Under the pieces are notes generated by a model. The model ran no database searches. It saw only the letters and a list, made by a program, of their open reading frames with translations, and was not told the DNA's origin. From a virus, in IMG/VR virus record IMGVR_UViG_3300021363_000002, positions 1 through 48,467 of that record: a DNA stretch of 48,467 bases; one strand, given 5' to 3'. Below are positions 1-48,467 of the stretch, piece after piece (positions within the stretch are counted from its first letter, which is position 1; each line of letters opens with the position of its first letter). The position numbers and the translations under genes were made by a program.

Positions 1-90
1 CGGGGTCCAACCCGAGTATTCCTAGAAATAGCACCTGAGAAAGCTATTCATCATCTACTCGATGAACAACTGAAGGAGTGGCTACAATGA
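1..90 (+). CDS. 3' end of wrap-around CDS (duplicate copy of 48341..48430)
   Basis: Lies inside the duplication; stop TGA at 88..90. Confidence 0.6.
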   Translation, partial: RGPTRVFLEIAPEKAIHHLLDEQLKEWLQ

Positions 91-127
91 AAGCATACTT
101 TGGTAATACAGCTACTGTCGTAGAAGT
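1..127. repeat. Terminal 127-bp duplication, identical to 48341..48467 (contig closes on itself; unique length 48340 bp)
   Basis: Compared base by base; ORFs read straight through the junction. Confidence 0.95.
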
Positions 128-230
128 CGTTGGTTATGTTTATGATGGTACTGAGACGCTTGCCATCGTCAAGTTTAGTAATGGTGGACTCAAGTCAGTT
201 CCTCTACATAAACTGGTAGTACAAAAATGA
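87..230 (+). CDS. hypothetical protein, 47 aa (MKAYFGNTATVVEVVGYVYDG...)
   Basis: Hand-translated, below the ORF-track cutoff. ATGA overlap with the upstream stop and ATGA overlap with the polymerase start. Confidence 0.5.
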   Translation: MKAYFGNTATVVEVVGYVYDGTETLAIVKFSNGGLKSVPLHKLVVQK

Positions 231-2707
231 TCATCGAACCAACCTCATTTAAGAACACAGCCCACTTGAACGAACATATGCGTCAGAAGTGTCATGACCT
301 CAACGTTCGTTATCAGGTCGGCGGTGATGGAGATATCAATGCCCAATACGCCATTATCGGTGAGGGACCGGGCCAACAGGAAGTCAACTCCGAACTCCCA
401 TTTGTTGGTGCATCCGGAGCCCTCTTGTGGAACGGTTTACGCCCACACGGCCTTCTTCGCACCCACTTTTATAGCACTAACGTTTGTAAGCGACAGATAT
501 CAACCGTCAAGAATACAAGATATCCCGTCGCGGCGGATGAATGGGTTAAGTGGAAACATCTGCTCCAATGGGAACTTGATCAGCTGCCTAATCTACGATA
601 TATCATCTGCACTGGCAATGCTGGTCTCTCAACCCTCTTTGGAGAGACAGGTGTTTCGAAGTTCAGAGGGTCTGTATACGACTACAAGGAAGCCCGTGCA
701 CTTGTTACATACAATCCAGCAGCTCTTATACACGAGCCGAAGAACCATATAGTCTTCCTTCTAGACTTAAAGCGTTTCAATACACTACGCAATGGAGATT
801 GGATCGACTACAGTGTCAATCACATCATCAATCCTAGTTATAAAGACGCTCGCGAGTGGATCGCAGCCATGCGTAATAGTCCACGCGACGTGGCATATGA
901 CATTGAAACCATCAGTCGGGAGACTGCTTGCTTTGGTCTTGCGGATCAAGGCCATGAGGCCATGTGTATCAATGTTCGTGATCATCTTCACAACCGCTAC
1001 ACTAGAGAAGAAGAGCTACAATTGTTGTATGACCTACAGGAACTCTTCGACGCCAAACTTCTTATCACGCAGAATGGCAATTTTGACGCGCATTGGGGGG
1101 GATATAAAGACCTTCTCCATGTCCGAAATGGCTTTGATACACTTCTTGCGCATCATACCCTATACCCGGTCCTGCCGCATAATCTAGGCTTCCTTACTTC
1201 ACAATATACCACTCATCCGTTCTACAAAGACGACGCTGACGAATACCATGAAGGCGGGGACATCGACTCCTTTTGGCGATACAACTGCAAAGATGCATGT
1301 ATCACTTGGGAGATAGCACAACATCTTAAACGAGAACTAGAGGAGCAATCCCTTGACCACTTCTTCTATAGTCACGTTATGCATCTTGACCCTCATCTTG
1401 TCCGCTCCACTGTGGATGGTGTGGCTGTCGATATATCTGTTAAGTCTGAGATTGCTGCTGCAATGGCTCTGGACGTACAGAAGATCGAGGATGAGTTTCT
1501 CGAAATGGTCAGAGAAGAACTTGGCCTCGATGAAACGTACCACCCAAATATCCGATCTACACCCCAAATGCGGCATTTATTCTTGGACAGACTCAAACTT
1601 CGAAGTCCGTCTGGCTCAATTGATAAAGAGGTTAGACAAGATCTCCTAGATGATGTTCGGACTTCACAGTCTGTTAAGGACATAATCATCAAGTATGACT
1701 ACTATCAACAGGAGTATAAGTTCTACTCCACCTATGCTGAGTCAAGGGTTGATCCTGATGAACGCTTCCGTATGCAGTGGAAACAGCAAGGTGTCGTCAA
1801 GGCACCGGGTAGGCTCTCATCCTCGGGCAATCTTTGGGGCACGGCATCTAATGCACAGAACCAATCGGGTCGCTCTAAGAAGTTCTTCATCTCTGACCCC
1901 GGTACTGTGTTCATCAAGGTTGATGGAGCCCAAGCCGAGGCAAGAGTCGTGGCTTATGACGCGGATATTGACAAGTGGAAAGAAGACTTTGAGCGGGCAA
2001 GACTTAATCCCGGTTCATTTGATGCCCACTGCTCTCTCGCTTCTGATATGTATAAGATACCATATGATGAAGTCCCAACCGATGATTGGGAGTTGGATGA
2101 GCGAACGGGACTTGAGATACCAACAATCCGCTACAAGGCTAAACGGTGTCGTCATGGACTCAACTATCGAATGCAATACGTCCGTCTGGCTGCAACTGCA
2201 CACCTAACCCTCTTCGATGCGAAGAAGGCATTCATCTTCTATCACAATACAACTCCAGAGATAAAGAAGTGGTGGGAAGAACTTGAACGGCTTGCAAAGA
2301 AACATCGTGAACTATGGACGCCGCTCGGTAGGAGATATCGTATCATTCAGAGAATTGACGAAGATGCTCTCGAAAGCATTGTCGCGTTCAGACCTCAATC
2401 GACTATCGGCGATAAGGTTAAAAAGGTGTGGTATCAATCCGCAGAAGATGACGAGTGGGACAACCGTAAGATGCGTATCAAACTTAACGAGCATGATGCT
2501 CTCATTGGATATGCAACGCCGGAGAAGGCGGAGACAGCACTACGAATTATAAAACGACATATGGAGGAGCCCATCCTGATAGAGAACGTCTATAAGACGA
2601 AGGTAGAAGAATGCATAATCCCCGGTGATGTTTACTTATCACAGCCAGATGAAACTGGTATACATCGCTGGTCAACCTTGGAGAAGTTGAAAGGGTTCAC
2701 GCTATGA
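227..2707 (+). CDS. Family A DNA polymerase with N-terminal uracil-DNA-glycosylase-like domain and 3'-5' exonuclease domain
   Basis: UDG family-4-like motif GEGPGQQE..PFVGASG; exo motif DIET; polymerase motifs VDGAQAEARV (A), RYKAKRCRHGLNY (B), EHDAL (C). Confidence 0.85.
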   Translation: MIIEPTSFKNTAHLNEHMRQKCHDLNVRYQVGGDGDINAQYAIIGEGPGQQEVNSELPFVGASGALLWNGLRPHGLLRTHFYSTNVCKRQISTVKNTRYPVAADEWVKWKHLLQWELDQLPNLRYIICTGNAGLSTLFGETGVSKFRGSVYDYKEARALVTYNPAALIHEPKNHIVFLLDLKRFNTLRNGDWIDYSVNHIINPSYKDAREWIAAMRNSPRDVAYDIETISRETACFGLADQGHEAMCINVRDHLHNRYTREEELQLLYDLQELFDAKLLITQNGNFDAHWGGYKDLLHVRNGFDTLLAHHTLYPVLPHNLGFLTSQYTTHPFYKDDADEYHEGGDIDSFWRYNCKDACITWEIAQHLKRELEEQSLDHFFYSHVMHLDPHLVRSTVDGVAVDISVKSEIAAAMALDVQKIEDEFLEMVREELGLDETYHPNIRSTPQMRHLFLDRLKLRSPSGSIDKEVRQDLLDDVRTSQSVKDIIIKYDYYQQEYKFYSTYAESRVDPDERFRMQWKQQGVVKAPGRLSSSGNLWGTASNAQNQSGRSKKFFISDPGTVFIKVDGAQAEARVVAYDADIDKWKEDFERARLNPGSFDAHCSLASDMYKIPYDEVPTDDWELDERTGLEIPTIRYKAKRCRHGLNYRMQYVRLAATAHLTLFDAKKAFIFYHNTTPEIKKWWEELERLAKKHRELWTPLGRRYRIIQRIDEDALESIVAFRPQSTIGDKVKKVWYQSAEDDEWDNRKMRIKLNEHDALIGYATPEKAETALRIIKRHMEEPILIENVYKTKVEECIIPGDVYLSQPDETGIHRWSTLEKLKGFTL

Positions 2708-2925
2708 TACCCTATGCTGGCAAAGACGAGACTGAATACACAGTAAAAGGTGAGTATGGGAAACGAATATGGGAGTTCCATGATAGGAAAATCCGTAAAT
2801 ACTTCTCAACTCACCTTTGTGCAAAAGGAACAGAGTGCGCGAAAGCGCTTCATATCTCAGCGACTACAGTAAGCAAGCACGTCGTAAAGATACGAGGCGA
2901 ATGGGTAGAGTGGAGATTACTATGA
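2704..2925 (+). CDS. small putative helix-turn-helix DNA-binding protein
   Basis: TECAKALHISATTVSKHVVKI looks like an HTH; ATGA coupling to the polymerase stop. Confidence 0.4.
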   Translation: MIPYAGKDETEYTVKGEYGKRIWEFHDRKIRKYFSTHLCAKGTECAKALHISATTVSKHVVKIRGEWVEWRLL

Positions 2926-3131
2926 TGCACATAACAGATAAACAAAAGAAGATGCTTGGAGTAGTACTCAAGTATGGGCGTATAAACATCGGCTTGGCAG
3001 AGATGATCGATGATGACTTTAATGAACTGGTCCATAATGATCTGCTTCTTATTCGTAAGTCATATGATACTGTCGAGGTAACAATCATGCCTATCAAGTT
3101 GAACGATGTTAAGGACATGATCAATGTCTAG
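2922..3131 (+). CDS. hypothetical protein, 69 aa (possible winged-helix)
   Basis: In-frame ATG at 2922 overlaps the upstream stop (ATGA). The longer track ORF from 2817 would overlap the previous gene. Confidence 0.45.
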   Translation: MMHITDKQKKMLGVVLKYGRINIGLAEMIDDDFNELVHNDLLLIRKSYDTVEVTIMPIKLNDVKDMINV

Positions 3132-3339: not shown

Positions 3340-3635
3340 TGCGTTGGTTTCTTGTTCTTACACTACTCGCAACTACAACTTCTGTAGCTGCACACGATGC
3401 CCCCCTAGGATGGGCATATGATGGTGCTTGTTGCTCTGGCTATGACTGTTCACAGTCTATCGCAGGAGCTGTTTTGGAAACTAAAGGTGGCTATGTGATA
3501 AATAAGACACAAGAACTTATACCGTATGGTGACAAGCGCATCAGGCGGTCTCATGATGAGTTCTTCCATCAGTGTGTAATGAATAGCAATCCAAAGCATT
3601 CCCTCTGTTTATACGTGCCAGATAGAGGCTTCTGA
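3339..3635 (+). CDS. secreted Cys-rich protein
   Basis: Signal peptide MRWFLVLTLLATTTSVAA; WAYDGACCSGYDC motif; TAATG overlap. Confidence 0.55.
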   Translation: MRWFLVLTLLATTTSVAAHDAPLGWAYDGACCSGYDCSQSIAGAVLETKGGYVINKTQELIPYGDKRIRRSHDEFFHQCVMNSNPKHSLCLYVPDRGF

Positions 3636-4255
3636 TGAAGCAAGCATGGTTCTGCTATGTCCTGATACACGGCTATATACCTGCACCACGAATATATTAT
3701 GACATTCTACCACTCGACAAGTATATAGACCGTGTACAGTTGACAAACGTCTCTGATTTGGCAGAGAGAACTCCTAAGCACTTCACGCTTGATCTACTCG
3801 CTGCCATGTATCCTTACATACCGCCCTTGAAAGAGGAGAGTTCTGATGCTACAATTGCTACAAAGGAGAAACAAATGACCCGCCCTGTCACAGGGTTTCA
3901 GACTTCGCAAGGGAACTTCTTCGAAACTGAAGCCGAAGCGAACCTCTTTGAAGCGTCTTACGAACTACACGAAGCAACTACAACTGCTGTACATAACTTT
4001 GAACCGAGACCTGCTGATGACCAATCATTCGAGGACAGCCTTGTCGAAGGTATTAAAGCATTCATCGCAAGTCATGAAAGGATTATCCGAAAGTACCTCG
4101 ACGCCCGTGCAACTCTCACACCAAAGGGATTGTCAGATACTGTTTCGGTGGATGGACCGCCAGCCAAAGCTGATCCGTCTAATGATCCATCAGTACGAAG
4201 CAAAGATAATCCACGATTGGATGAGAAGGCCACTACCAAAGGAAAGCCTACGTGA
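3635..4255 (+). CDS. hypothetical protein
   Basis: Track ORF; TGATG overlap with the upstream gene. Confidence 0.55.
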   Translation: MKQAWFCYVLIHGYIPAPRIYYDILPLDKYIDRVQLTNVSDLAERTPKHFTLDLLAAMYPYIPPLKEESSDATIATKEKQMTRPVTGFQTSQGNFFETEAEANLFEASYELHEATTTAVHNFEPRPADDQSFEDSLVEGIKAFIASHERIIRKYLDARATLTPKGLSDTVSVDGPPAKADPSNDPSVRSKDNPRLDEKATTKGKPT

Positions 4256-4551: not shown

Positions 4552-4976
4552 ACCAAGTCATTTACAAGCCCCGTATATCCGTCGATTTCGACGGCGTGAT
4601 CTACAACCGCCCCAAGACTGAACGAGGCAACTTAGTTTACAGTGCTGCCCCTAATCCCGGTGCAATGAACTTCATCCGCCATGCTGTATCAGCATTTGAA
4701 GTTGTCATCTGCTCATCTCGCTTTGCTGGTTCTGATGGTGAAGCGAGTCAAGCCCTCTGTGAAGTATGGTTTGAGAAGCAACTTCGTGAGGAGCGCCGCC
4801 TTCAAGTCCTTCGTAAGAAGCCCCCATTCGATGTCAATACAGTCATGTCTAGACTAACCTTCACAGCTACAAAACCTGTAGCTAGAGTATACATTGACGA
4901 TCGTTCCTTTCTTTTCACTGGCGAGTGGCCAACTATACCTCAACTCCTAGCATTTCGTACATGGAAAGGACTATGA
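4548..4976 (+). CDS. HAD-superfamily phosphatase/nucleotidase-like protein
   Basis: HAD motif I SVDFDGVIY and a late YIDDR motif; ATGA coupling. Confidence 0.5.
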   Translation: MNQVIYKPRISVDFDGVIYNRPKTERGNLVYSAAPNPGAMNFIRHAVSAFEVVICSSRFAGSDGEASQALCEVWFEKQLREERRLQVLRKKPPFDVNTVMSRLTFTATKPVARVYIDDRSFLFTGEWPTIPQLLAFRTWKGL

Positions 4977-5197
4977 TGAAACCTACACTAAGTGATGAAT
5001 TCTGGGCGTATCTCGCTGAGAAGGCTATGAGCCATCGTCAGTTCCCAGCTGGTGATGAACAGATAAACCAAGGCAAGACAGACAACAGTCGTCACCAGAT
5101 GGAGACAGACCTGACGATGGATAAGCTGCCTCACACTGATAAGAAGCGATCCACCATCGATGAAATCCTTGCTAAAATCCTAGGAACTCGCAAATGA
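4973..5197 (+). CDS. hypothetical protein, 74 aa
   Basis: In-frame ATG at 4973 gives an ATGA overlap with the upstream stop. Confidence 0.5.
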   Translation: MMKPTLSDEFWAYLAEKAMSHRQFPAGDEQINQGKTDNSRHQMETDLTMDKLPHTDKKRSTIDEILAKILGTRK

Positions 5198-5508
5198 AGT
5201 ATGCCAATCACGGACAGTATCTCTCAAAGCTGCGACATGTACTCCTCTCTGCGGGTACACAAGGCTTGTCACAACATATGCTTAACCAATTAACTCGTAC
5301 CAAGATATTCCAGACAGACGATATGATGGAAGCTCTCAATGAATGGGAGAACCGTTATTGGGTACAGTCATTCAAGGTAAAGGGGCTCAGCAAACATCCT
5401 AAGACTATGTGGCGTGCTACTACGAAGCTGCGTGACGAATGGTCATCGTTAGTCATCGATGGTGAGCTACCGACTATTGCTGAACCCCATGAGGTGCCTG
5501 ATTTGTGA
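5194..5508 (+). CDS. hypothetical protein (last gene of the plus arm)
   Basis: Track ORF; ATGA coupling. Its 3' end overlaps the convergent gene by 35 bp. Confidence 0.55.
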   Translation: MKYANHGQYLSKLRHVLLSAGTQGLSQHMLNQLTRTKIFQTDDMMEALNEWENRYWVQSFKVKGLSKHPKTMWRATTKLRDEWSSLVIDGELPTIAEPHEVPDL

Positions 5509-8500
5509 GGTGTTTGGTAATATCAAACTTAAAGCCGGGAGGTACCTCTCTATTCTTTATTAGCTGCTCTGTTACATGGCTCTCTACACGAGCAATCAGC
5601 TTTAGTTGCTGCTTGATCATCTCAATTCTTTCTCTTTCTAGCACGGCGATTAGTTTCATAACATCGCCACGCTTGCCCATATCAAGGTTCATGCTCTTGT
5701 ACAGACGTTCAACCTTAGCAGCCTCGCCAATGCTGTTGTTTATATTACTAGCCTGCGTCTTCCATACCTTCTTGTTAGTCGCCTTCTCTACTGGACCTAG
5801 CTCCTCAATAGCCTTCTTGTACTTTGCATCTGAGCCTACAATATCTGCTTGCCAGTCACGGAAGCCTTGCTTTCTGCCTGACGTGTAGGCTCTTAAACTC
5901 TTCACCTGTTTACTGAACAGGCTATCTCTAGCCAACAGACCAGTCATACCGATCTCGTTGGTTTCCAAGAAGCTATGTATCATCGGTCCATACTTCATGA
6001 TGATAGGATTGCTAGTAGGGATAGTCACTGGATTAGGACTCATCCTATACTTGCTCATCAAGTCGGTATCTGTGACTATATTACCACCGGGGTTATCCTT
6101 CGAGGCACCCGTGTTTGGTAGAGCCGTCTCCCTGAACTGCTCCTGTTTGGCAATCTGATTGCTGTATATCTCCTCGAACTTCTTCAGCGCATCTATCTTC
6201 GTGTTCTTCAACTGTGACAGCGGAGTGAAGTTTGATACAGGTGTTGTAGTTGCCGCCTTCAGTATCGGGGTACCCTTCAAAACCTGCTGACCGAACTCCT
6301 CGAAGAATGCTTTTGGTCCACCGTCATAGAATGCAGCAGCAGTCTGTAGAGCGGTAGTACCAACGCTAGCGAAGATGGCACGGAACACCATCTCCATGTT
6401 CTGTGGAAGCAGGCCAATGTTATCCTCTGATACCGTATATACCTCGTCCTGCCAGTTCTGTGGTGACAGCAAACTATCCGGTGCCTTTATACCAGCTACA
6501 GCCGCACCCAATGTCACGATCTGAGGAAAGCCCACCATCGCAGTGTTCTCTAAGTTCTGCCCTGCGATATGCATCATTGCGGCTTTGGTATCCTCACCAC
6601 TATCACCACGTAGCATACTGTACAAGCCAGTCGTGAACGGACTATTGAACATAGTCAGTTCTAACGGCATGGGTATCTGTATACCCTGTTCCGGTGGTAG
6701 TCCCGGCATACCAAAGTACATGTTTGTACTGATGTCTCTACTGCTACGTGTCTCGAATGCATGGCGGTTATACTCCTCACCAAGCATCTCATTCCAACCA
6801 ATGCTAATAAGTCCCGGTAGCCCGACAGCAGTCCAAGCTCTAATGTTTGCACCAAGCGGGTCATCTATGAATGCCTTCCCCATCTTTCGCATGGACTGCA
6901 CCATGGGATTGAAGTATGGAGTAGCCTCACGTGTGAACTCTAATGGCCGACCAAGGACACCAGCAAGAGTAGCCATGCCTTTATTCGATGCATCGGCTTG
7001 TATCCTCTTGCCGCTAGGAGCATATACACGACCACTGCGCATTGTGTCGCCAGTCAACTCTCTGGCATTACGTGCAGCCTCAGCCGGGTCCATACCAGCC
7101 CGAGTATTCCGTATGAATGAACTGAACCTCGGCGCCTCAGAGATAGCATCGAAGACGTTACCCAACCCATGTAGCATAGCCTTGACGTTCCGACCAAGGA
7201 ACCTTGCACCGGGTATCTGTCCGCCTGAGGCATCAATAGATTTCATTACCTCTCGCATCACACCCTTGCCAGACTGGATGCTACCCTTCATGAGAGATGC
7301 GTCTGTTCCACCTTGAGTGTTAGCAAGATGATAATAACTATTCATATAGCTGTGACTCATCTGCTGAGCCAACTGATCCCTTGACTGCTGTGGCAGGAAG
7401 GGGATTGTCTTCATGTTGTTCTGAAGAGCTTCGATCATTGCTAGCTGTGTCTTGGCCCACACGGTTTTGCTAGCCGCAGCTACAACACTTGTAGGGCCAC
7501 CGGGACCAAGCACTCCCGGCTCTTTCATGACAAATCCACCAATGCTGTCTCTGATAGCCGTAGTAACAGCAAACGGGCCAGACAACAATGTAGCAGGACC
7601 AGTCATGAACTGCTCAGCACCACGCTTCACAAAGAATGTGACAGGGAACTTCGCAATGTATGGGTCGAACCGTAATAGGTTAGCTTGCAACTTAGAAGTA
7701 AGATAACTCTTCCGCTTGCCATTCTCATAGATGGTGATGACGCGATCGGGATACTTCATCATATCGTCGCCAGTTGCGGGGCGTATCGTTTCACTACCGA
7801 TCTCGCTGTTCTTCACACCCTTGACGAACGCACCACGAACGTCATGCTCTAGTTTGGACTTCAGCGTATTCCGAGTATAGTCAGTGAGCATCTCGATGGC
7901 GTTAGGTTGACCATCCATGTTCTCGGCTATATCTTCTGGCTTTTGTCTATACCAGTTATCTATAGCCTTCTGATCAGTAGGGGCAGCGGCATCCTTTATC
8001 CTCTTGATGATGCCATCAGCAGGATTAACAGTCAACGTATCGGGTGGTACAAAGTTTGTCCCGTGTGTATTCTGATGCAGCAGGCTCTGCTGCGATATCA
8101 TAGCATTGTCACCAGTGGCAAGGAAGTTTCTCGTCGCCGCAGTGATATGCTTATATGCAGCGGAGAACTCCTTAACTACAGGAGTCCTCTGTTCTATCAT
8201 ATAGATGTTCTGATTAACCTGTCTCAACTTAGCTGGAGCATCAGGTGCTGGCTTACCCCTTGGACGCCGACTAGCAAGTATCCTTTGCTGTAGCAGATCA
8301 GCATAGTTCTTGTGCTTGAGATACATATCTACGTCAGCTTGCATAGCTGGTGGTAAACGAGCATTCTCTTGGAACAGTTGATTAGGCGTGATATCAACCT
8401 TCCAGACACCAGCCTTAGTAGCTAGTTGACCAGTTCTCATGCTCTCGTTGACACGCATCAAGGCAGTCATCTGACTATCCTGATCGATCATCTTCGCTAC

Positions 8501-37402: not shown

Positions 37403-37463
37403 CACCTTACATAAGCATTTTGCCTTTGTTAGCGAGGAAATTGTCTTGACAAAGGAGGGTGTT

Positions 37464-40433: not shown

Positions 40434-40442
40434 CTGACTTCG

Positions 40443-40480
40443 ATAGCCAGTCGTATTTGTTGCGGCTGGCTATTCTTTTG
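40443..40480 (+). terminator. intrinsic terminator
   Basis: 11-bp stem ATAGCCAGTCG/CGGCTGGCTAT followed by TCTTTTG. Confidence 0.7.
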
Positions 40481-40481: not shown

Positions 40482-40557
40482 TGGAAAGTAGCTCAGTTGG
40501 TAGAGCAGCGGTCTCCAAAACCGCAGGTCGTAGGTTCAAGCCCTGCCTTTCCAGCCA
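40482..40557 (+). tRNA. tRNA-Trp: tRNA-Trp (anticodon CCA), CCA end encoded
   Basis: Cloverleaf folded by hand. Acceptor TGGAAAG/CTTTCCA. D arm GCTC-AGTTGGTA-GAGC. Anticodon arm GCGGT-CTCCAAA-ACCGC. Variable loop AGGTC. T arm GTAGG-TTCAAGC-CCTGC. Discriminator G, then CCA. Confidence 0.85.
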
Positions 40558-41284: not shown

Positions 41285-41481
41285 GTAAGCGTATTGGCAT
41301 ATTCTCCGTTCATCAAAGGCAGCAGCCGTTTGCTGTCTTTGGTGATCATATATGGAGGATTTGGATATCATATAACAACGATGTTACATCTGGTACTTAT
41401 CTAGAACTATATCCTGATGGACAGGTGGACAGAGTAACTGTTAACAACAACGATATAATGGAGGTAGTACGGATATGTTAA
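41281..41481 (+). CDS. hypothetical protein
   Basis: Track ORF; ATGA overlap. Confidence 0.5.
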   Translation: MSKRIGIFSVHQRQQPFAVFGDHIWRIWISYNNDVTSGTYLELYPDGQVDRVTVNNNDIMEVVRIC

Positions 41482-41582
41482 AGATAGCTAAGTTTAAATA
41501 TCGTGGTAAGATTTATACAAGTCTTACTGAACTCGCTGCAGCAATGCTTGCTCATACATTGGAGAAGTCCAATGTTAAATGA
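41475..41582 (+). CDS. hypothetical micro-protein, 35 aa (MLKIAKFKYRGKIYTSLTELAAAMLAHTLEKSNVK), HTH-like
   Basis: Hand-translated; GGAGG 10 nt upstream. Confidence 0.35.
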   Translation: MLKIAKFKYRGKIYTSLTELAAAMLAHTLEKSNVK

Positions 41583-41955
41583 TCTCATCGCCTTACGTAA
41601 CAAGAAGACGCCTAAGAATATCTCGAACACTGACGCCCTGATGTTCGACTACAAGTTCTGGACAGAAGCCGAAAGTGTCATCAAGAAGACACGAGAAGCA
41701 TCTAAGTCTACAATGCTCTCTGCTTCTGATAAGCCTGACAAGCCCGGCATTGTCCTCGCCTCACAGAAATACAAATGCGTCCTCGAACAGTCCTCTCCTA
41801 TTCGTGCGTTCGATTTGGAAGTCTTCATCATGAGTGTCCTTGATTACTACCCACTTTGCTCCAAGCCGAAGCTGCGTGAACTGGCTACAGCTGCTGTAGT
41901 TCCCACCAAGCCACGTAACACATACAAGGTAATGGAGATTACAGATGTCGAGTAG
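41572..41955 (+). CDS. hypothetical protein, 127 aa
   Basis: ATG 41572 after GGAGAAG; in frame with the track ORF starting at 41503. Confidence 0.5.
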   Translation: MLNDLIALRNKKTPKNISNTDALMFDYKFWTEAESVIKKTREASKSTMLSASDKPDKPGIVLASQKYKCVLEQSSPIRAFDLEVFIMSVLDYYPLCSKPKLRELATAAVVPTKPRNTYKVMEITDVE

Positions 41956-42579: not shown

Positions 42580-42722
42580 TGGATAAGTTCACTTGGTTTG
42601 TCATGGCGTTGACTATCTGTATCAACGCTTACAATACACGCTGCAACTGGTTGCTCTATGATCAACTTCGTCGTGAAGATGATCAACGTGCCAAGATGCG
42701 TAAGGAGCATCCTGATGTCTGA
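42576..42722 (+). CDS. small membrane protein, 48 aa (MMDKFTWFVMALTICINAYNTRC...)
   Basis: Hand-translated; GAGGAGG RBS; ATGA overlap. Confidence 0.4.
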   Translation: MMDKFTWFVMALTICINAYNTRCNWLLYDQLRREDDQRAKMRKEHPDV

Positions 42723-42936
42723 AGACAGTGATGAGTTCCAACGTATTGTAATCGCTCGCGAGTTAGTGCGTCGCCCTGAAATCAAATTCTTGGCCGGTGT
42801 ACTCTACAATCTGACTACAGGTGTTGTAGACAAAAACGAAATCCCGCCGATCTACATCACCATCGCGTACAAACTAATCACACAGAAACACGCAAGGGAA
42901 TTACTCCTTGCAGCGATAGGAGCAGCCACACCATGA
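42715..42936 (+). CDS. hypothetical protein, 73 aa
   Basis: In-frame ATG 42715 overlapping the upstream stop. Confidence 0.45.
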   Translation: MSEDSDEFQRIVIARELVRRPEIKFLAGVLYNLTTGVVDKNEIPPIYITIAYKLITQKHARELLLAAIGAATP

Positions 42937-43217
42937 GCATCAACGTTGTCACTGTATTCGGTGAGGAAATCGAGAAAATCTGGCGTAACCAAGTCTCTCG
43001 TGAAGCAGTCTTCCAACTTCGTTTAATGGGTGAACAACTCATGACTATGGAGAAGGCTATCAACACTCAACAGAGGATGATTGAAAAGCTTCTTCACTTC
43101 TCTGTCCTTGAAGGGAAGGCGTTACAAGAACTGAAGCAACTTCAGAAACGATTTGATGCTGAGTTCGATAAATCTAATATCGAGACGGAGAAGATCGATG
43201 ACGAAAAACCCAACTGA
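42933..43217 (+). CDS. hypothetical coiled-coil protein
   Basis: Track ORF; ATGA overlap. Confidence 0.5.
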   Translation: MSINVVTVFGEEIEKIWRNQVSREAVFQLRLMGEQLMTMEKAINTQQRMIEKLLHFSVLEGKALQELKQLQKRFDAEFDKSNIETEKIDDEKPN

Positions 43218-43422
43218 ACAAACTGTCCTTATCGACAGTAGTGAAGTAGCAGCCCACATTCCTGACTACGATGATAACATCCGCTGTCCGGATCATCCTA
43301 CAGCGAAAGTTGTCTCATCATTTGGTCTTGCTGGTGGTGGCTACGGTCCATACACATACTGCGACATATGTTGCAGGATACTATCTAAGACAAGTGAACC
43401 TATGGAAGACAGTTCTACATGA
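43198..43422 (+). CDS. zinc-ribbon-like protein, 74 aa
   Basis: ATG 43198 after GGAGAAG; CPDH...CDICC pattern. Confidence 0.45.
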   Translation: MTKNPTEQTVLIDSSEVAAHIPDYDDNIRCPDHPTAKVVSSFGLAGGGYGPYTYCDICCRILSKTSEPMEDSST

Positions 43423-44492
43423 AATTCCGTCTAGCCGATATCAAGTTTGATGACCAAGGTCGTCGCATAGACGAAGACTTCCGTCTTCCATACTATAGTT
43501 TCTCAATCATGGAGGCAATTCTCACCTGTCCTAAGTGGGGATTGATAAGATATCGTGACAGAAAGTACTTCAAATCTAACTATCGAGCGCTCGCACTCGA
43601 AGCTGGCTCGGCGATGCATGAAGTATTTGGAGCCTTACGTCTTTGGCAACTCAAACGAGTTCAAGGCTTGCCAGATCACTTTAACCATCACGGAACTAGA
43701 CTGTACGGTAAGAACCGTTTGGACACTTGCTGGTGGGACAAGAGTGATCCACGAGACGAAGCACTCTCCTTTTGTTTTGAAATTCTAAACTCTGGTGAGT
43801 ACTACGACGATCCAAAGGACCGCATCCGGACGATGGCCCATATGGAAGAAACGACTATTCGGTATGTAGACGAGATGATGAAGGTTATGGATCGTAACTC
43901 TATCTGGATTGCTGACCCCAAAGACCCTACAGCACCTGTAGGTATAGAGTACACATTTGATATGGTGGTAGATAATGCGATCCGATACATCGGAACTATT
44001 GATGGTATCACTATCCATACTCCTCGCGGCGTTACCAGAAACGAGGAGAACAAGACCGCTAGCCGTCTTGATGAGGCATGGCGTGAAAGTTACAGAGTTA
44101 AGTTCCAGCCTACTGGATACACAATCGCGTCTCGTCTACTTACAGGCGAAGAGATCATCGAGAACAAAATCATAGGCATCAAGGTAAAACAGACAAGAAG
44201 TAGTGAAGACTTCCTAATGTTTGTGGAGCACAGAGATGTCGATACGTGGTCAGACTTTTATAACACACTTCTTTATACGCATAAGCTTGCTCTTGAGTAT
44301 GCTGGTAATAACCTCAATGCTCCTATGTTTACTCACTCTTGTAATCGATACTTCCGACCATGTGGGTTCATTGACTTATGCTGCGCATCACAAGACGATC
44401 AGCAAACTATGTATGATGCAATGGAGAGAACTCAATTGTCACCTAGTGAGAGAGCAATACTAGGTACACAGGAGGATGATGATGTTACATAA
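43419..44492 (+). CDS. PD-(D/E)XK exonuclease, Cas4/RecB-like, with Fe-S Cys cluster
   Basis: N-terminal Cys (ILTCPKWG); GTIDGITIH; E-x-K (EENK); QPTGY; C-terminal CNRYFRPCGFIDLCC. Confidence 0.65.
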   Translation: MKFRLADIKFDDQGRRIDEDFRLPYYSFSIMEAILTCPKWGLIRYRDRKYFKSNYRALALEAGSAMHEVFGALRLWQLKRVQGLPDHFNHHGTRLYGKNRLDTCWWDKSDPRDEALSFCFEILNSGEYYDDPKDRIRTMAHMEETTIRYVDEMMKVMDRNSIWIADPKDPTAPVGIEYTFDMVVDNAIRYIGTIDGITIHTPRGVTRNEENKTASRLDEAWRESYRVKFQPTGYTIASRLLTGEEIIENKIIGIKVKQTRSSEDFLMFVEHRDVDTWSDFYNTLLYTHKLALEYAGNNLNAPMFTHSCNRYFRPCGFIDLCCASQDDQQTMYDAMERTQLSPSERAILGTQEDDDVT

Positions 44493-44667
44493 GACACACC
44501 GCTACACACATACAGTTAAGTTTGATCAAGACAAAATAGATCGTCTTGCTCACATTGAGGAAATCTATCAAAACACGAATGGTTGGACAAAGCAGCTATT
44601 CAATCTCTATGAAGAACGCAAGCAGTTGCAAATGCTCTGCAAGCGTATGAGGCCAGAAAAGTCATGA
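44476..44667 (+). CDS. hypothetical protein
   Basis: Track ORF; CAGGAGG RBS. Confidence 0.45.
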   Translation: MMMLHKTHRYTHTVKFDQDKIDRLAHIEEIYQNTNGWTKQLFNLYEERKQLQMLCKRMRPEKS

Positions 44668-45470
44668 CTGAAATCGTCATCGAACAACCGGATGAAGTAA
44701 TCAGCCGATCGACTGGCCTCCTTTGGGGAATGCCCGGTTGTGGGAAGACAACTTTTCTCTCTTCCCTGCCACCACCTATCCTCTATGTCATGATAGACCC
44801 TGATGGTAAGGACTCCATTCCCTCTGACACGGATTACACGCTTCTTGACCTGTCCATGCAAGATGACGATGTAACAGTCCGCTATTGTAAAGACAAACTG
44901 CCTACCCTAATCAAACGCCTCGATTGGACTACAGGTTCTGTAGCGTTCGATAGCTTAACCATCTTCTCGAACCGTGCTCTCAATTATGCTGTGCAGCAGA
45001 AAGTTGGTGCTGGTAAGAAGGGCTTCGAACCAACCATCGAAGAACCCGGCCAAACCGCCTATGGTGCCCGTCGTCAATACATCACTCATACTGTCAGCAA
45101 TGTCCTTCGTGCGACTGCACAGAAGGGTTACAACTGTTGGTTCACTACCCATCAAGGTGATGCAGAGATGGACGAGAAGGGCAACATCATTCGTTACACA
45201 ATGATGCTCGGTGGCAAGGCTACCAACGATGCTGCTATACAAATATCCGAATGCTGGTGGATGCGTGAGTATGATGGCAAACGTTCCATCGCTGTTCGCA
45301 ATTGCCGCAATAGAGAACCGATGAAGACGCGTATGTTTGATGCGTCTAAGTCGCCAGAGTTCGAACTCAAGTTCAATCCATCGCTTGGGTTCGATCAGCC
45401 ACATAGCATTGCAACGTGGCACAAACAGTGGTTAGATGGAGGAAGAAAGAAAATGCCACTGCCTACGTAG
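44664..45470 (+). CDS. RecA-fold ATPase, Sak4/AAA_24-like (recombination)
   Basis: Walker A GMPGCGKTT; size and position directly upstream of a DUF669-like gene. Confidence 0.6.
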   Translation: MTEIVIEQPDEVISRSTGLLWGMPGCGKTTFLSSLPPPILYVMIDPDGKDSIPSDTDYTLLDLSMQDDDVTVRYCKDKLPTLIKRLDWTTGSVAFDSLTIFSNRALNYAVQQKVGAGKKGFEPTIEEPGQTAYGARRQYITHTVSNVLRATAQKGYNCWFTTHQGDAEMDEKGNIIRYTMMLGGKATNDAAIQISECWWMREYDGKRSIAVRNCRNREPMKTRMFDASKSPEFELKFNPSLGFDQPHSIATWHKQWLDGGRKKMPLPT

Positions 45471-45496: not shown

Positions 45497-46000
45497 ATGG
45501 CAAAGAATGCAATTAAAGCAGACTTGGAACAGACAGAACTGGAAGAGAACCGAAAGCTCTCTGCTGGCGCTGGTAAGGAACGATCCGGTATCCTCGAACT
45601 CGATATGAACCTTGAGGATTACGAAGACTTCGAACCACTGCCTGACGCCTTCTATCCCGGCACAGTTACACTCGCTGAGATGCGTACGTCTGCAAAGGGT
45701 AACGATTATTATTACGTTACCTTCCAAGTGCATCCTGATGACTTTCCTCCGGATTACTCTATCGACAACGCTCCGGAAGGTATCAACCTTGTCTACGCTC
45801 GTGTCCAGAAGCCGACGCCTAGAAACCGTCGTTCTATCACTGGCGTCAAGAACTTCCTTCGTGCCCTTGGCATGTCGCTGAAGTCATCTGTCATCAACCC
45901 CGGTGAGTGGGAAGGCCATCGTGCTAACCTTCTCCTCGGCCACCAAGACTGGAATGGCATCGATATCAATACCATCGATGGCATCGAGGCTTTGGACTAA
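45497..46000 (+). CDS. DUF669-like protein (putative ssDNA-binding partner of Sak4)
   Basis: Hallmark FEPLPDAFYPGTVTLAEMRTSAKGNDYYYVTFQV; synteny with the AAA_24-like gene. Confidence 0.6.
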   Translation: MAKNAIKADLEQTELEENRKLSAGAGKERSGILELDMNLEDYEDFEPLPDAFYPGTVTLAEMRTSAKGNDYYYVTFQVHPDDFPPDYSIDNAPEGINLVYARVQKPTPRNRRSITGVKNFLRALGMSLKSSVINPGEWEGHRANLLLGHQDWNGIDINTIDGIEALD

Positions 46001-46015
46001 CTACAACACCTGTAG
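46001..46015. repeat. motif copy abutting a stop codon and fused to a terminator stem
   Basis: TAA-CTACAACACCTGTAGC-TGGTG... Confidence 0.9.
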
Positions 46016-46056: not shown

Positions 46057-47217
46057 TTGAACTACTCTGAAGAACAACATGAAGCTATCGACTTAGGCAC
46101 CGATAAGTCCAAACGCCTAGTCGGTATTACCGGTCCGGCCGGTACAGGCAAAACAACTATAATCGGGGAGATGATCCACAGTGGTGAGTTCAACATGCCT
46201 GCTCTCGTGGCCCCCACTGGAAGGGCTGCCAAGAGAATACAAGAAGCGACTGGTATCCCTGCTAAGACAATCCACCGCTTCATGCGCTATTCGATGCCAG
46301 CCGATGACGAAGAGGCAGGCTTCCCCTCCTATGATAAACAAAACCGATTTCCACATGACGCGATCTTCGTTGACGAGTCCTCTATGGTATCTGAAGAACT
46401 GTATCGTGCCCTTGTAGATGCTATGCCGCCTCGTGCATGTATCCGCTTCATTGGTGATGCCAATCAGCTACCGCCTGTTGAAAGCATCAGTCCTTTCGTC
46501 AAACTATTAGAGAAGTGGCCATCTATTCGCCTTACCAAGAACTTCCGAAGTGGAGATGGCATTGTCACAGCAGCTAATCAGATCATCGCTAATCGCGTAC
46601 CTGAGCCGAACGAGAAGTTCCGTATGCTTAATCCGGGCAACGGGAACATCTTACCTGCGCTTGATGAGTTCGTCGACGACACATTTCGTGGTCTCAACGG
46701 ACAAGTCATCACCCCAACAAGAGTGGGCAAATACGGAACGCAACAGCTCAATAATTACTTCCAGCAACGACTCAACCCCTCTGGCCCCCGTATAGCTATC
46801 CGTGTCAACGATGAGGAGATACGCAAGTTCCGTGAGGGTGACAAGATCATCCAAACGAAGAATGACTACAAACTGAATGTCTTCAATGGTGAGATAGGTT
46901 GGGTAGTCGCAATCGAAGATGATGATATAATCATCAGTATTGATGATCGTGACATTCGCCTCCCACCACACATGGAAAGCTATGATCCATACACCAACAA
47001 GACTATCGGTCACTATGACCCCCGCCGTAACCTCGACCTTGCCTATGCTGTTACGACACATAAGGCTCAGGGGAGTGAATTTGATCGTGTTGTCATCCTC
47101 ATTCAACGAAGCTACGTGCTCAACCGCGCAAACTTTTACACGGCTGTCACCAGAGCCAAGGAGCAATGCACAGTAATCTGTGGACCGGGAGCGCTGCATC
47201 AGGCATTAAAGAAATGA
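46057..47217 (+). CDS. SF1 RecD-like DNA helicase
   Basis: Walker A GPAGTGKTT; Walker B IFVDESSMV; C-terminal AVTTHKAQGSEFDRVVI; TTG start after TAGGAGG. Confidence 0.8.
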   Translation: MNYSEEQHEAIDLGTDKSKRLVGITGPAGTGKTTIIGEMIHSGEFNMPALVAPTGRAAKRIQEATGIPAKTIHRFMRYSMPADDEEAGFPSYDKQNRFPHDAIFVDESSMVSEELYRALVDAMPPRACIRFIGDANQLPPVESISPFVKLLEKWPSIRLTKNFRSGDGIVTAANQIIANRVPEPNEKFRMLNPGNGNILPALDEFVDDTFRGLNGQVITPTRVGKYGTQQLNNYFQQRLNPSGPRIAIRVNDEEIRKFREGDKIIQTKNDYKLNVFNGEIGWVVAIEDDDIIISIDDRDIRLPPHMESYDPYTNKTIGHYDPRRNLDLAYAVTTHKAQGSEFDRVVILIQRSYVLNRANFYTAVTRAKEQCTVICGPGALHQALKK

Positions 47218-47561
47218 GTAGAGAAATGATATACCTTGCTTCACCTTACTCTCACCCCGATCGTAACCTTGTCAATGAACGTGTTGGCATTACTCGTCAG
47301 TGTTGTGCTGCACTTATCAATAAGAAGTTCTGTGTCTGGTCGCCGATATTGATGACTCACGGTATTGCCTATGGCTTACCAACCGATGCTAAGTTCTGGA
47401 TGGAGTATAACTTCGATTTCATCCGTCGGTGTGAGTATATCTTTGTCCTCAAAATCCCCGGATGGGATACAAGTGTTGGAGTTGCAGAAGAAATCGCTGT
47501 AGCTAAATCACTGTTCATCCCTGTTCGCTTCGTTGACGCTTTTGGAGATTTCATAGAATGA
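47214..47561 (+). CDS. DUF1937 / nucleoside 2-deoxyribosyltransferase-like protein, 115 aa
   Basis: IYLASPYSHPD N-terminal signature; ATGA overlap with the helicase stop. Confidence 0.5.
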   Translation: MSREMIYLASPYSHPDRNLVNERVGITRQCCAALINKKFCVWSPILMTHGIAYGLPTDAKFWMEYNFDFIRRCEYIFVLKIPGWDTSVGVAEEIAVAKSLFIPVRFVDAFGDFIE

Positions 47562-47767
47562 GAGCGCATCCTGTTAGAGACGTACAAATCATCTTCACTG
47601 TCGAACTCTCCGATAAGAAGTTCTACAGTCAAGTATCTATCCCTCTTGAGTCATCAGATGAGGATAAACATGAAGCTGTTACTAACTGGCTACAGATGAT
47701 GGAGATGGGTTTGAAGTGGAACCTATCTGAAATGAGGGCCACCTTCAAGGAGAAGGATGATGGCTGA
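47558..47767 (+). CDS. hypothetical protein
   Basis: Track ORF; ATGA overlap. Confidence 0.5.
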   Translation: MRAHPVRDVQIIFTVELSDKKFYSQVSIPLESSDEDKHEAVTNWLQMMEMGLKWNLSEMRATFKEKDDG

Positions 47768-47954
47768 CTTCTGTAAGAAGTGCTCAATAAAGACTTTTGG
47801 TAAAGACTATGGTGACTTTGCTAATATCGTGTCACCAGAGGAAGAGGCTAGGGGTCTTGTAGTAACTGTCCTATGTGAAGGCTGTGGCCCAATTGATGTC
47901 AATCACAGGGGCGAATGTGTCTCACCTGATTGTGAGGAGTGCAAACGTGCTTGA
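47757..47954 (+). CDS. Cys-rich zinc-binding-like protein
   Basis: CKKC...CEGC...CVSPDCEEC pattern. Confidence 0.5.
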   Translation: MMADFCKKCSIKTFGKDYGDFANIVSPEEEARGLVVTVLCEGCGPIDVNHRGECVSPDCEECKRA

Positions 47955-48138
47955 CGGTTTATATCGTGTCCGCACACCGTATCTATGTGCAGGGTTTGTA
48001 GTCAAGAATGGTCGTGTTGTCTACTGTGCACCAGTACTTCGCAATCGTCTCCCATACTGGAAGACAGTCGCTCAACGAATGGATAAGAATGATGACCCGT
48101 ATACGTATCTTGCAGCTAGCAAAGAAACTAATCACTGA
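47947..48138 (+). CDS. hypothetical protein, 63 aa (GTG start)
   Basis: GTG 47947 lies 9 nt after GAGGAG. The track ATG at 47875 would overlap the previous gene by 80 nt. Confidence 0.4.
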   Translation: MLDGLYRVRTPYLCAGFVVKNGRVVYCAPVLRNRLPYWKTVAQRMDKNDDPYTYLAASKETNH

Positions 48139-48430
48139 ACACTACCTGCCTTTGAGCCACCACCGTCTAGCTACAACTGCTGTAGGTGAAAACGTTGCCT
48201 ACTGCCACCCCGATGCAGTCAACTTCTCACTAGTTGGTGCAATTGAACGTGCCATCTATAATAGTACGGGTGATGACTACAATCTCCGCGGTGATTTATA
48301 CGAAGCTTCAATCGGTCCTCTTATCACCCGCCTTGGTGGTCGGGGTCCAACCCGAGTATTCCTAGAAATAGCACCTGAGAAAGCTATTCATCATCTACTC
48401 GATGAACAACTGAAGGAGTGGCTACAATGA
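48089..48430 (+). CDS. hypothetical protein (DUF6197-like?), 113 aa; wraps into 1..90
   Basis: In-frame ATG 48089. The family resemblance (..HPDAVNFSLVGAIERA..) is from memory only. Confidence 0.4.
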   Translation: MMTRIRILQLAKKLITEHYLPLSHHRLATTAVGENVAYCHPDAVNFSLVGAIERAIYNSTGDDYNLRGDLYEASIGPLITRLGGRGPTRVFLEIAPEKAIHHLLDEQLKEWLQ

Positions 48431-48467
48431 AAGCATACTTTGGTAATACAGCTACTGTCGTAGAAGT
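48341..48467. repeat. second copy of the 127-bp terminal duplication
   Basis: Identical to 1..127. Confidence 0.95.
48427..48467 (+). CDS. 5' part of the 87..230 CDS (duplicate copy, truncated by the window end)
   Basis: Lies inside the 127-bp duplication. Confidence 0.5.
   Translation, partial: MKAYFGNTATVVE

Follow-up and report, generated by a model that had tools for sequence, protein, structure and literature searches.

Evenly spaced, lineage-specific palindromes in the chromosomes of a family of phages

Why should a phage carry the same short palindrome about once per kilobase (kb) along its whole chromosome, inside genes as well as between them, and what reads it? The question is raised by the virus record IMGVR_UViG_3300021363_000002 of IMG/VR, whose whole stretch of 48,467 nucleotides (nt) was analysed (positions 1 to 48,467, hereafter the window) and in which the motif CTACA-N5-TGTAG recurs dozens of times. 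An earlier note on this DNA had reported 41 perfect copies and a genome-wide enrichment, which is fully confirmed here, with 41 exact matches where 100 dinucleotide-preserving shuffles of the window average 0.04 and never exceed 1. Beyond that note, three observations are decisive, namely that motifs specific to each lineage are found across the phage family, that the copies are evenly spaced, and that all coding copies stand in a single codon phase. The enrichment is real and selected at the DNA level, and probably phage-specific.

Anatomy and placement of the palindrome

When up to one mismatch is allowed, 54 matches are found against 1.73 expected (shuffle maximum 6). The spacing between the arms is rigid, N5 occurring in 41 copies and every other spacing from 0 to 30 being seen at most twice; the two variants with an 11-nt spacer that had been pointed out earlier, CTACA-N11-TGTAG at 27305-27325 and 32761-32781, are both present and may be due to chance (2 seen, 0.10 expected). 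Concerning positions, every perfect copy had been placed correctly except one, given as 26047 where the true start is 26048, and the ten one-mismatch copies then listed exist, the count falling short by three (1016, 34113 and 47690) of a total of 13. In these the changed base is mostly the outermost one, hence the strict core is TACA-N5-TGTA, with 51 copies in the window.

Beyond the arms, the 41 copies give a wider consensus, Y-A-R-CTACA-R-S-W-S-Y-TGTAG-Y-T-R, in which the symmetry of the half-sites reaches into the flanks. This flank symmetry had been noticed before with counts slightly too low, as a purine precedes the motif in 38/41 copies rather than 37 and a pyrimidine follows it in 37/41 rather than 36; the CAC or GTG spacer centre in 20/41 copies had been counted correctly. 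The spacer had been described as R-NNN-Y, of which the outer R and Y hold, the supposedly free centre being in fact restricted to give R-S-W-S-Y, with A or T as the central base in 40/41 copies. Spacer positions 6/10 and 7/9 are thus symmetric by class (R/Y and S/S, respectively).

The same spacer positions bear on whether the element acts as a folded strand. A single-strand hairpin would be either a lagging-strand priming or primosome-assembly signal, or a site in the mRNA where an RNA-binding protein of the phage would influence translation, stability or processing, and every motif class of the family described below is able to form a stem of 5-7 base pairs (bp) with a loop of 1-5 nt. The bases at 6/10 are Watson-Crick paired in 13 copies and those at 7/9 in 8, where 18.5 and 16.5, respectively, would be expected under independence; being complementary below chance, these pairs limit any hairpin to the five arm pairs, and an extended hairpin is ruled out. 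The arms themselves are invariant, with no covariation, G-T is not preferred to A-C at 6/10 on the sense strand (13 vs 9), and the arm stems have little stability (-3 to -6.6 kcal/mol when folded as single-stranded DNA, flanks included, and about -3 in the AT-rich classes), while as RNA processing sites the copies internal to open reading frames (ORFs) would be useless or harmful. Intrinsic terminators and repetitive extragenic palindromic (REP)-like elements describe the copies poorly as well, the stems being five-pair and AT-rich without a T-run, and 29/41 copies lying within ORFs.

Isolated half-sites, said earlier to be many, are in only mild excess (134 vs about 94 expected), and half-site clustering of the origin type was looked for in the gene-free region (32861-33815) and not seen. 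Rigid spacing, independent half-sites and a tolerance limited to the outermost base make up the pattern expected of a symmetric dimer on duplex DNA. On the strength of these sequence patterns we favour duplex recognition by such a dimer over a short hairpin; of the two models put forward earlier, the dimer on duplex DNA fits better and the hairpin is excluded beyond five pairs. We hold it probable that the sites are duplex binding sites of a phage-encoded symmetric protein, and unlikely that a single-strand hairpin is what is read.

Gene calls were taken from two public assemblies of the same phage and checked by translation. They place 29/41 copies in ORFs and 12/41 in non-coding DNA, which makes up 6.5% of the genome. 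All 29 coding copies stand in a single codon phase, xCT ACA NNN NNT GTA Gxx, and encode [A/T/P/S]-T-x-x-V-[A/V/G/D]; of the other two phases, one includes a TAG stop and the other forces Tyr-x-x-Cys. When synonymous codons are shuffled within each gene, so that protein and codon usage are preserved, 0.69 +/- 0.84 coding copies are obtained, with a maximum of 5 in 1000 shuffles, versus the 29 observed. The proteome contains 35 hexapeptides able to encode the motif, and in 29 of them (83%) the motif is present. Chance, dinucleotide composition and codon usage are ruled out as sources of the array by the dinucleotide and synonymous-codon shuffles, and the finding withstands the codon-preserving control that had been proposed for it.

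The first and last 127 bp of the window are the same sequence (1-127 = 48341-48467), which points to a circularly assembled complete genome of 48,340 unique bp; the repeat gives no information on the physical termini, and no motif copy falls in the duplicated stretch. On this circle the coefficient of variation (CV) of the gaps between the 41 copies is 0.60, versus 0.97 for random placement (P=3e-4). It decreases to 0.53 when one-mismatch copies are included (P<5e-5), leaving a largest gap of 2.4 kb, as the one-mismatch copies fall in the largest gaps between perfect copies.

Coding copies in genes of the minus strand are found at 7480-7494, 8866-8880 and 9469-9483 in the gene 5474-9634, of 1386 amino acids (aa), the second of them kept at the orthologous codon in the related locus L003; at 9906-9920 in g9628-10599 (kept in L003, L004, L020, L030 and L032); at 11040-11054 in g10960-11625; at 12685-12699 in the GNAT acetyltransferase gene g12539-12985 (arms kept in 4 relatives, with a different spacer); at 14243-14257 in g14001-14285; at 14653-14667 in g14282-14848; at 16172-16186 in g15168-16886; at 17371-17385 in g16883-18682 and 18902-18916 in g18654-19328, both kept in L002; at 21469-21483 and 22189-22203 in g21365-22453; at 23516-23530 in g22395-24398, a putative portal gene of 667 aa (kept in L001); at 26048-26062 and 26852-26866 in g25902-27410; at 28314-28328 in g27706-28473; at 29804-29818 in g28485-30002; at 30214-30228 in g30002-30313; and at 31134-31148 in g30739-31212. 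Those in genes of the plus strand are at 3373-3387 in g3339-3635, 4867-4881 in g4548-4976, 33868-33882 in g33816-34118, 41103-41117 in g40904-41284, 41885-41899 in g41572-41955 (kept in L003, L030 and L032), 42815-42829 in g42715-42936, 43927-43941 in the exonuclease gene g43419-44492 (arms kept in 5/5 aligned relatives), 44929-44943 in the Sak4-like gene g44664-45470, where relatives have a copy at another codon instead, and 48171-48185 in g48089-48430.

Among the one-mismatch copies, the outermost base is changed at 1016-1030 (aa 266 of the polymerase PolA, with a perfect TACA-N5-TGTA core and orthologous copies in L003 and L004), 3978-3992 (in g3635-4255), 6235-6249 (in 5474-9634, filling the gap from 4867 to 7480), 19678-19692 and 19828-19842 (both in g19340-20020), 21151-21165 (in the major capsid gene 20411-21364), 24326-24340 (in g22395-24398, with an orthologous copy in L001), 25305-25319 (aa 197 of the large terminase, TerL, with orthologous copies in L001 and L002), 30474-30488 (in g30310-30729) and 35238-35252 (intergenic). 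Two copies carry CTATA, at 13616-13630 in g13473-13700 and at 34113-34127, overlapping the stop of g33816-34118; the weakest, with TGGAG at 47690-47704 in g47558-47767, is possibly chance.

The intergenic perfect copies begin with 32313-32327, which adjoins the stop codon of g32328-32672 (-), and 32889-32903, which lies 29 nt ahead of the start of g32672-32860 (-) and at the margin of the gene-free stretch, about 950 bp long; 33043-33057 is within that stretch. Two copies come after terminator-like hairpins, at 33550-33564 (16 nt past the hairpin 33507-33534) and 38843-38857 (8 nt past the hairpin 38806-38835 and 19 nt before g38876), and two are shortly downstream of promoter-like sites, at 34331-34345 (30 nt past 34273-34301) and 40005-40019 (about 60 nt past the consensus sigma-70 promoter 39915-39943 and 19 nt before g40038). 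The spacer holds the Shine-Dalgarno sequence GGAG, with a start codon just past it, at 33550, at 34331 (ATG at 34348), at 35575-35589 (GTG-initiated ORF from 35592) and in the one-mismatch copy at 35238 (ATG at 35255). The remainder are at 34193-34207, at 36282-36296, at 37628-37642 upstream of g37693-38799, and at 46001-46015, directly after the stop of g45497-46000 and upstream of a RecD/Dda-like helicase gene. The relation to promoter-like or terminator-like sites is not consistent, and identity with promoters or terminators was rejected. The copies are not promoter hairpins of the N4 type either, as no RNA polymerase domain was detected and most of them lie inside ORFs without fixed relation to gene ends.

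Dispersed sites under a repressor are known from Cluster A mycobacteriophages (L5, Bxb1), which carry 20-30 stoperators genome-wide, mostly off promoters and oriented with transcription (PMC6550527, PMC9283540), with a consensus that co-diverges with the repressor between lineages (PMC6550527). A stoperator-like roadblock array is the main rival explanation and the one with the best precedent: a phage repressor on dispersed sites would block RNA polymerase genome-wide, for silencing in a dormant or carrier state or for a timed shut-off, and the lineage-specific motifs would define immunity groups. The window array is likewise dispersed, at a similar density (41 perfect and 13 near-perfect sites in 48.3 kb, few of them near promoter-like sequences), it prefers intergenic positions (12/41 in 6.5% of the genome), and copies just downstream of 34273-34301 and 39915-39943 or overlapping ribosome-binding sites are where a roadblock might be wanted. 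However, stoperators are asymmetric sites of 13-14 bp read by a monomeric repressor, whereas the window sites are strict palindromes with symmetric flanks, many deep in ORFs, and operators need neither copies at conserved codons deep in long genes nor even spacing; early and late operons are, moreover, covered alike. Cluster A phages are temperate, with an integrase or parABS and a known immunity repressor, and lysogeny functions did not turn up in the present case: among the called genes of the window and four relatives, many of whose ORFs are unannotated, neither an integrase nor ParA/ParB nor a recognisable repressor was seen. We therefore regard the silencing function as doubtful, and immunity groups defined by the motifs as equally so.

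Motif classes and site conservation across the family

The polymerase retrieved at least 349 IMG/VR relatives, with which the window forms a large and uncultured phage family; the analysis covered 80 loci, none longer than 22 kb, most relatives being represented by 6-22 kb of sequence about the polymerase gene. When 89 polymerases were placed in a neighbour-joining tree, three clades were obtained, with bootstrap values of 92, 98 and 78 and a mutual order that the tree does not settle. Palindromes of the TACA type, at a density of 0.7-1.7 per kb, mark clade A (13 loci, one of them the window), namely CTACA-N5-TGTAG, CTACAG-N3-CTGTAG, TTACAT-N3-ATGTAA, TTACAA-N3-TTGTAA and TTAAA-N5-TTTAA. Clade B (48 loci) shows GT[G/T/A]TGA-N-TCA[C/A/T]AC, of which GTGTGA-N-TCACAC is an example, GTTGTG-N3-CACAAC or ACTTTAA-N-TTAAAGT, and some of its lineages have hybrid half-sites such as GTTTGA-C-TCACAC. 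Clade M (25 loci) is mixed, some lineages having palindromes of their own at 0.25-0.6 per kb (ACACGTGT, TTATACGTATAA, CTTACYGCRGTAAG, TAGCCAA-N6-TTGGCTA and TAACA-NN-TGTTA) and others none detectable; the more distant outgroup phages examined show no such arrays. Overall, a dozen or more lineage palindromes of 12-17 bp exist across the family, and the motif classes track the PolA tree.

Conservation of individual sites was assessed by comparing window sites with orthologous codons in clade A relatives, whose proteins are 35-67% identical (33 comparisons). In 18/33 (55%) all ten arm bases are kept while the spacer differs, and in the other 15/33 only 1-5 of the 10 arm bases match; among control positions of equal codon phase, 0.66% are perfect. 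Conserved sites include exonuclease aa 172 (in all relatives), PolA aa 266, TerL aa 197 and aa 229 of the g9628 protein. Sites are, as far as these alignments tell, kept whole or lost whole, with new ones arising elsewhere. The comparison with related phages that had been suggested earlier thus leaves the finding standing, as both the motif and many individual sites are kept.

Even spacing is also a property of the relatives, with a CV of 0.37-0.67 in 12/13 sources tested and a median of 0.47 in clade A loci; clade B statistics, obtained with simple 4-mer-arm patterns, are noisy because its half-sites are degenerate. What differs is where the copies are placed. The GTGTGA-type motif includes TGA and translates poorly, hence its copies are wedged between stop and start codons: in the clade B locus L021, 11/13 copies are at gene junctions. 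In the late operon of clade B the arrangement is TAA-CY-GTGTGAGTCACAC-A(0-3)-ATG, which leaves no room for a Shine-Dalgarno sequence, and in the early operon a copy is followed by a Shine-Dalgarno sequence and ATG within about 20 nt; some junctions have no copy, and runs of short genes share one. Internal copies in clade B occur only in long genes, PolA and the giant gene, at conserved codons, the one at PolA aa 275 being present in all five GTGTGA-class members then sampled. Copies of the ACTTTAA class are 12-22 nt upstream of start codons. The factor common to all motif classes is per-kilobase coverage, met wherever the word costs least. It should be noted that the junction copies of clade B suit a stoperator-like array as well, and that an element that fits precisely into the gap from stop to start codon, or that stands 12-22 nt before a start, would also suit an mRNA hairpin.

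A further explanation is that the array has no phage function and is a compositional feature, either derived from the host or generated by drive, such as an iterated palindrome, an uptake-like word or the trace of biased repair. HIP1 of cyanobacteria and the uptake sequences of Pasteurellaceae and Neisseriaceae occur about once per kb, within genes in preferred frames and in lineage-specific 'dialects', and uptake sequences are evenly spaced and non-palindromic. Those words belong to cellular chromosomes and consist of 8-12 contiguous bases, in contrast to a split palindrome of 15-17 bp that is probably confined to phage genomes and tracks phage phylogeny. Indeed, the motif class follows the phylogeny of the phage polymerase; sister lineages of similar guanine-cytosine (GC) content differ in motif, and in some members of the family no motif was detected. 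Phages as far apart as 43 and 55% GC share one class, which indicates that motif identity follows phage descent, and this in turn makes it likelier that the reader is encoded by the phage than that the motif is a property of the host. The all-or-none conservation at orthologous codons likewise points to selection on the phage. Of the 119 metagenome stretches among the matches listed for a 14-base seed of the motif, 116 contained the seeded copy only, including stretches from contigs of 160-530 kb; this is weak evidence in the same direction. A polymerase scan of bacterial genomes found a single family member, without motif, in a Thioalkalispiraceae metagenome-assembled genome. We consider a compositional origin hardly credible.

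Some similarities were noticed in passing. The clade B core TGA[C/G]TCA (e.g. in L047, L054 and L021) equals the AP-1/GCN4 site of eukaryotes, and a perfect GCN4 site is included in GTATGACTCATAC, probably by coincidence. Flexible pyrimidine-purine steps (TG/CA, TA) abound in every motif class. The distant outgroup L025 (Desulfofustis phage LS06-2018-MD01, OP947158) lacks an array and has 5-6 copies of GTCCCAA-N-TTGGGAC in 44 kb, with a ParB-like protein encoded beside the polymerase; its repeat set may be a small-scale version of the theme.

Candidate readers and the process served

The explanation that we put forward is that a phage-encoded symmetric dimer recognises the motif on duplex DNA, the sites being evenly spread points of loading or initiation for replication or recombination; taken as a whole it is plausible, if short of an even chance. 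According to this proposal, a sequence-specific phage protein would read the motif as a symmetric dimer, and selection would maintain sites at a density of about one per kilobase over the full length of the chromosome. A palindrome that can be translated (x-Thr-x-x-Val-x) would be written into genes in the sole codon phase tolerated, and one that cannot, such as the TGA-containing palindrome of relatives, would be placed between stop and start codons. Protein and sites would co-diversify, giving each lineage its own palindrome of 12-17 bp. The array would then provide points, spread along the DNA, at which a process of kilobase-scale reach is loaded or anchored, as its even kilobase-scale spacing suggests, and the RecD/Dda-type helicase and PolA machinery might be re-loaded or initiated at the sites. 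Duplex and dimeric recognition, the identity of the reader and the process served are what we infer, and that the process should be replication or recombination loading or initiation in particular we judge unlikely by itself.

Two proteins in particular come into question as readers. The first is a free-standing winged helix of 104 aa (g5194, 5194-5508, +), present in all clade A and B loci and with 109 metagenomic homologues, no Pfam family and an AlphaFold model that is MarR/PadR-like (mean predicted local distance difference test score, pLDDT, 79). It is homologous to the C-terminal ~70 residues of DUF3987 proteins of clade M and the outgroups, which are 380-420 aa long, are encoded just after the polymerase (e.g. 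L026 4896-6167) and are labelled primase or helicase by PHROGs. In clades A and B the P-loop part of DUF3987 is lost, and the winged helix is kept as a separate protein of 80-110 aa. PDB sequence searches with the DUF3987 protein and the winged helix found nothing, and a viral scan with the L026 DUF3987 protein gave no hit. The rule that a DUF3987 P-loop means no palindrome at first held perfectly (17 loci vs about 55) and was later falsified; the association that survives is that both high-density clades are without the P-loop domain. As a proven reader g5194 is not established, being a family core gene that is also present in members without motif.

The second candidate, as partner or reader, is a protein of 206 aa (g3635, 3635-4255, +), encoded between PolA and the winged helix. 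It is found in 11/11 clade A, 31/40 clade B and 0/20 clade M loci, and no other gene has a distribution that agrees with the high-density clades. It has a conserved core, RPV-GF-T--G-FF---EA, no detectable family and no PDB relative; its AlphaFold model is too poor (pLDDT 57) for the Foldseek matches to have meaning. NCBIfam and PADLOC scans of the candidates yielded nothing.

Replication comes into consideration because the array is densest where the DUF3987 helicase/primase-like domain is missing yet its DNA-binding domain survives, and because the clade-restricted g3635 sits in the replication module while no primase or helicase loader is detectable in the window. No replicative helicase, integrase, partition protein or RNA polymerase was detected there either (Pfam hits for ~95% of the genome, and direct scans). 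This replication link is circumstantial. In its most specific form the palindromes would be initiation, priming or re-loading sites read by the winged helix and the 206-aa protein in replacement of DUF3987, a private replication code for each lineage, which we consider quite unlikely; if true, such a code could also exclude or out-compete co-infecting relatives. That no primase was detected would also suit a priming hairpin, as would the spacing of about a kilobase, which is the length of bacterial Okazaki fragments.

Other candidates fare less well. A ribbon-helix-helix protein, with TacA1- and NikA-like Pfam hits, occurs in 44/48 clade B loci, among them all 8 GTGTGA-class loci of the first sample; the fold is typical of operator-binding proteins and would suit a stoperator-like repressor, but the protein is absent from clade A, has a weak look-alike in the motif-less L026 and is not encoded beside a motif copy, and was rejected as a general reader. 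A coiled-coil-like protein (42933-43217, +) and a helical protein of 73 aa (42715-42936, +) are weak candidates, found in 7/11 and 5/11 clade A loci, respectively, and in none elsewhere. The small proteins 2704-2925, 2922-3131 and 41475-41582, proposed earlier as binders, are present in 1/11, 1/11 and 0/11 clade A loci and are poor candidates; a fourth, 37693-38799, is outside the covered region in most relatives and 69% identical in the one relative that covers it. The latter is a protein of 368 aa with an Ala/Lys/Pro-rich, histone-H1-like N-terminus and no family hit, conserved at that identity in the closest relative, and it may bind DNA non-specifically. No ParB/Srx-like domain was found in the window or the family loci.

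Several observations weigh against distributed loading by a symmetric dimer. The third helix of g5194 is acidic, and its putative contact segment RT[KR]xF, consistent in clade A, is variable and acidic in the GTGTGA class. DUF3987-positive clade M loci (L068, L073, L084, L063 and L089) have palindromes of their own at 0.25-0.6 per kb, as do the DUF3987-negative clade M loci L093, L085 and L099 in turn; the PolA tree allows the loss of the P-loop domain to be a single event, and associations between genes and motif are confounded with phylogeny and may reflect one or two events. The window sites that overlap ribosome-binding sites, three perfect and one with one mismatch, suit transcriptional or translational control equally well, and many copies of relatives are 0-20 nt upstream of start codons. 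Finally, we know of no phage with dozens of dispersed origin-like or loading sites.

The strand bias of the central base, the only position at which these palindromes can carry an orientation, belongs with these points. On the sense strand of the window it is A in 26 copies vs T in 12, and all 9/9 intergenic copies of the rightward arm have A; in L006 it is C in 11/11 copies, and in the GTGTGA class of clade B it is G in 32 vs C in 14. A perfectly symmetric duplex reading predicts no such bias, and purine loading cannot account for a bias towards C, so that either the complex is functionally asymmetric, as with stoperators, or a single-stranded form matters. The bias is accordingly a point for the hairpin, since only an asymmetric or single-stranded reading predicts it, but in clade A it is mostly confined to intergenic early-region copies. 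In the window it is concentrated in the early region (33.5-41 kb) and at 9-17 kb, with no simple switch at the convergence point. The gene-free region 32861-33815 separates divergently transcribed arms, and the minimum of the cumulative GC skew falls in it; a replication start there would make transcription and replication co-directional in both arms, hence the bias fits both processes alike.

Targets of site-specific modification or nicking, that is, nicks in the style of T5-like or of some Pseudomonas phages or a base modification marking self DNA, are very unlikely in our estimation. Lineage-specific specificities with even coverage would suit self-marking, palindromes of 13-17 bp with an unspecified centre resemble the targets of homodimeric restriction-type or modification enzymes, and many window genes have no assigned function; yet no methyltransferase, HNH, GIY-YIG or restriction nuclease, nickase or base-exchange enzyme is conserved with the motif, and known phage nick consensus sequences are asymmetric. 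Pfam, PHROGs, NCBIfam and PADLOC scans and precomputed Pfam hits (~95% of the genome) revealed no methyltransferase or endonuclease, and the absence of methyltransferase and nickase genes stated in the earlier note was borne out by the Pfam hits and direct scans, which gave no restriction enzyme either.

Precedents, genome context and significance

The closest likeness is found in Cluster O mycobacteriophages (Corndog and relatives), whose 17-bp repeat 5'-TGTTCGG-N3-CCGAACA has 34 copies in Corndog, intergenic and coding (PMC4351075). Its positions are mostly kept among relatives, with occasional single-base loss, it is absent from the host genome, and a dimeric binding protein was proposed by the authors, who held promoter-type regulation to be unlikely (PMC4351075). 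The two arrays share invariant inverted repeats, a short and partly variable spacer and more than 30 copies in coding and intergenic DNA, and differ in sequence and in family, Cluster O phages being actinobacterial siphoviruses. The 34 sites of Corndog are unevenly spaced (CV 1.06, P=0.78) and clustered in one arm. Cluster O has one consensus in five genomes (PMC4351075), whereas the present family has a dozen or more clade-specific motifs, and the Cluster O paper (PMC4351075) gives no report of a single codon phase or of near-saturation of compatible peptides. Lineage-specific motif switching, even spacing, single-phase and near-saturated coding embedding, and the link to a remodelled replication module set the present array apart. 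The searchable literature returned only the Cluster O papers and none of these motif sequences in a phage context.

The repressor inverted repeats of phiC31 and the OB sites of KorB in RK2 are another comparison, in which one small dimeric protein reads a dozen or more palindromic sites on a replicon of 40-60 kb. There the sites are fewer, about 12-20, and stand between genes close to promoters, and the proteins that bind them have been identified; in the present case neither a ParB-family protein nor a repressor like that of phiC31 was found.

As to the phage itself, megablast against deposited phages gave no nucleotide match, and protein matches to cultured phages are distant (20-30% identity, polymerase and capsid). 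The marker that defines the family and its clades is a fusion of an N-terminal UDG-superfamily domain with a family A DNA polymerase (PolA, 227-2707, +), a fusion kept across the whole family and the outgroups. The window further encodes a PD-(D/E)XK exonuclease (43419-44492, +), a Sak4-like AAA_24 protein (44664-45470, +), a DUF669-like protein (45497-46000), the RecD/Dda-like helicase (46057-47217), TerL (24391-25902), a small terminase by a weak match (31555-32175), the major capsid protein (20411-21364) and a tRNA-Trp (CCA) at 40482-40557 in the early region, just past a terminator-like hairpin (40442-40474); an Rfam scan found the tRNA only. Downstream of the helicase, a DUF1937/nucleoside 2-deoxyribosyltransferase-like gene (47214-47561) is unique to this genome within the clade A sample. 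In relatives the replication module encodes proteins resembling Acb2/Tad1 and Tad2, which are anti-CBASS and anti-Thoeris sponges (L020 3426-3683, L022 4213-4461 and L021 8980-9279).

Outside that module, the GNAT acetyltransferase (12539-12985) is encoded within the virion/tail operon and is conserved in relatives of several clades. Two proteins of about 500 aa upstream of the terminase (g25902-27410 and g28485-30002) have no family hits and contain many tandem 'GVKFTN-QSFGVA'-like repeats, which hints at beta-helix or fibre proteins, unusually placed. Sites that strongly resemble sigma-70 promoters occur at 39915-39943, 37446-37475 and 34273-34301, one of them a perfect TTGACA-17-TATAAT, and suggest that the early genes may be read by the unmodified host polymerase of a bacterium with canonical promoters. 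The gene-free region contains an AT-rich block (~32900-32990), C-rich tracts and the strong terminator-like hairpin 33507-33534, and could be a replication origin and/or an unannotated non-coding RNA.

Dispersed dyad-symmetric repeats have previously been noted in few phage groups, and only as unexplained curiosities. In the present family, hundreds of related genomes with a dozen or more palindromes following phylogeny amount to a large natural experiment, in which dozens of sites would have been rewritten in concert with the specificity of a reader, under selection strong enough to shape coding sequence (a single phase, and 83% of the compatible peptides). About one evenly spaced site per kilobase points to a process of kilobase reach, and the many motif classes make the reader identifiable through covariation and simple binding assays. 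If the sites serve replication or self-recognition, they would represent a new principle of phage chromosome biology and supply orthogonal pairs of protein and DNA site; if they serve global silencing, control of the stoperator type would extend beyond actinobacteriophages.

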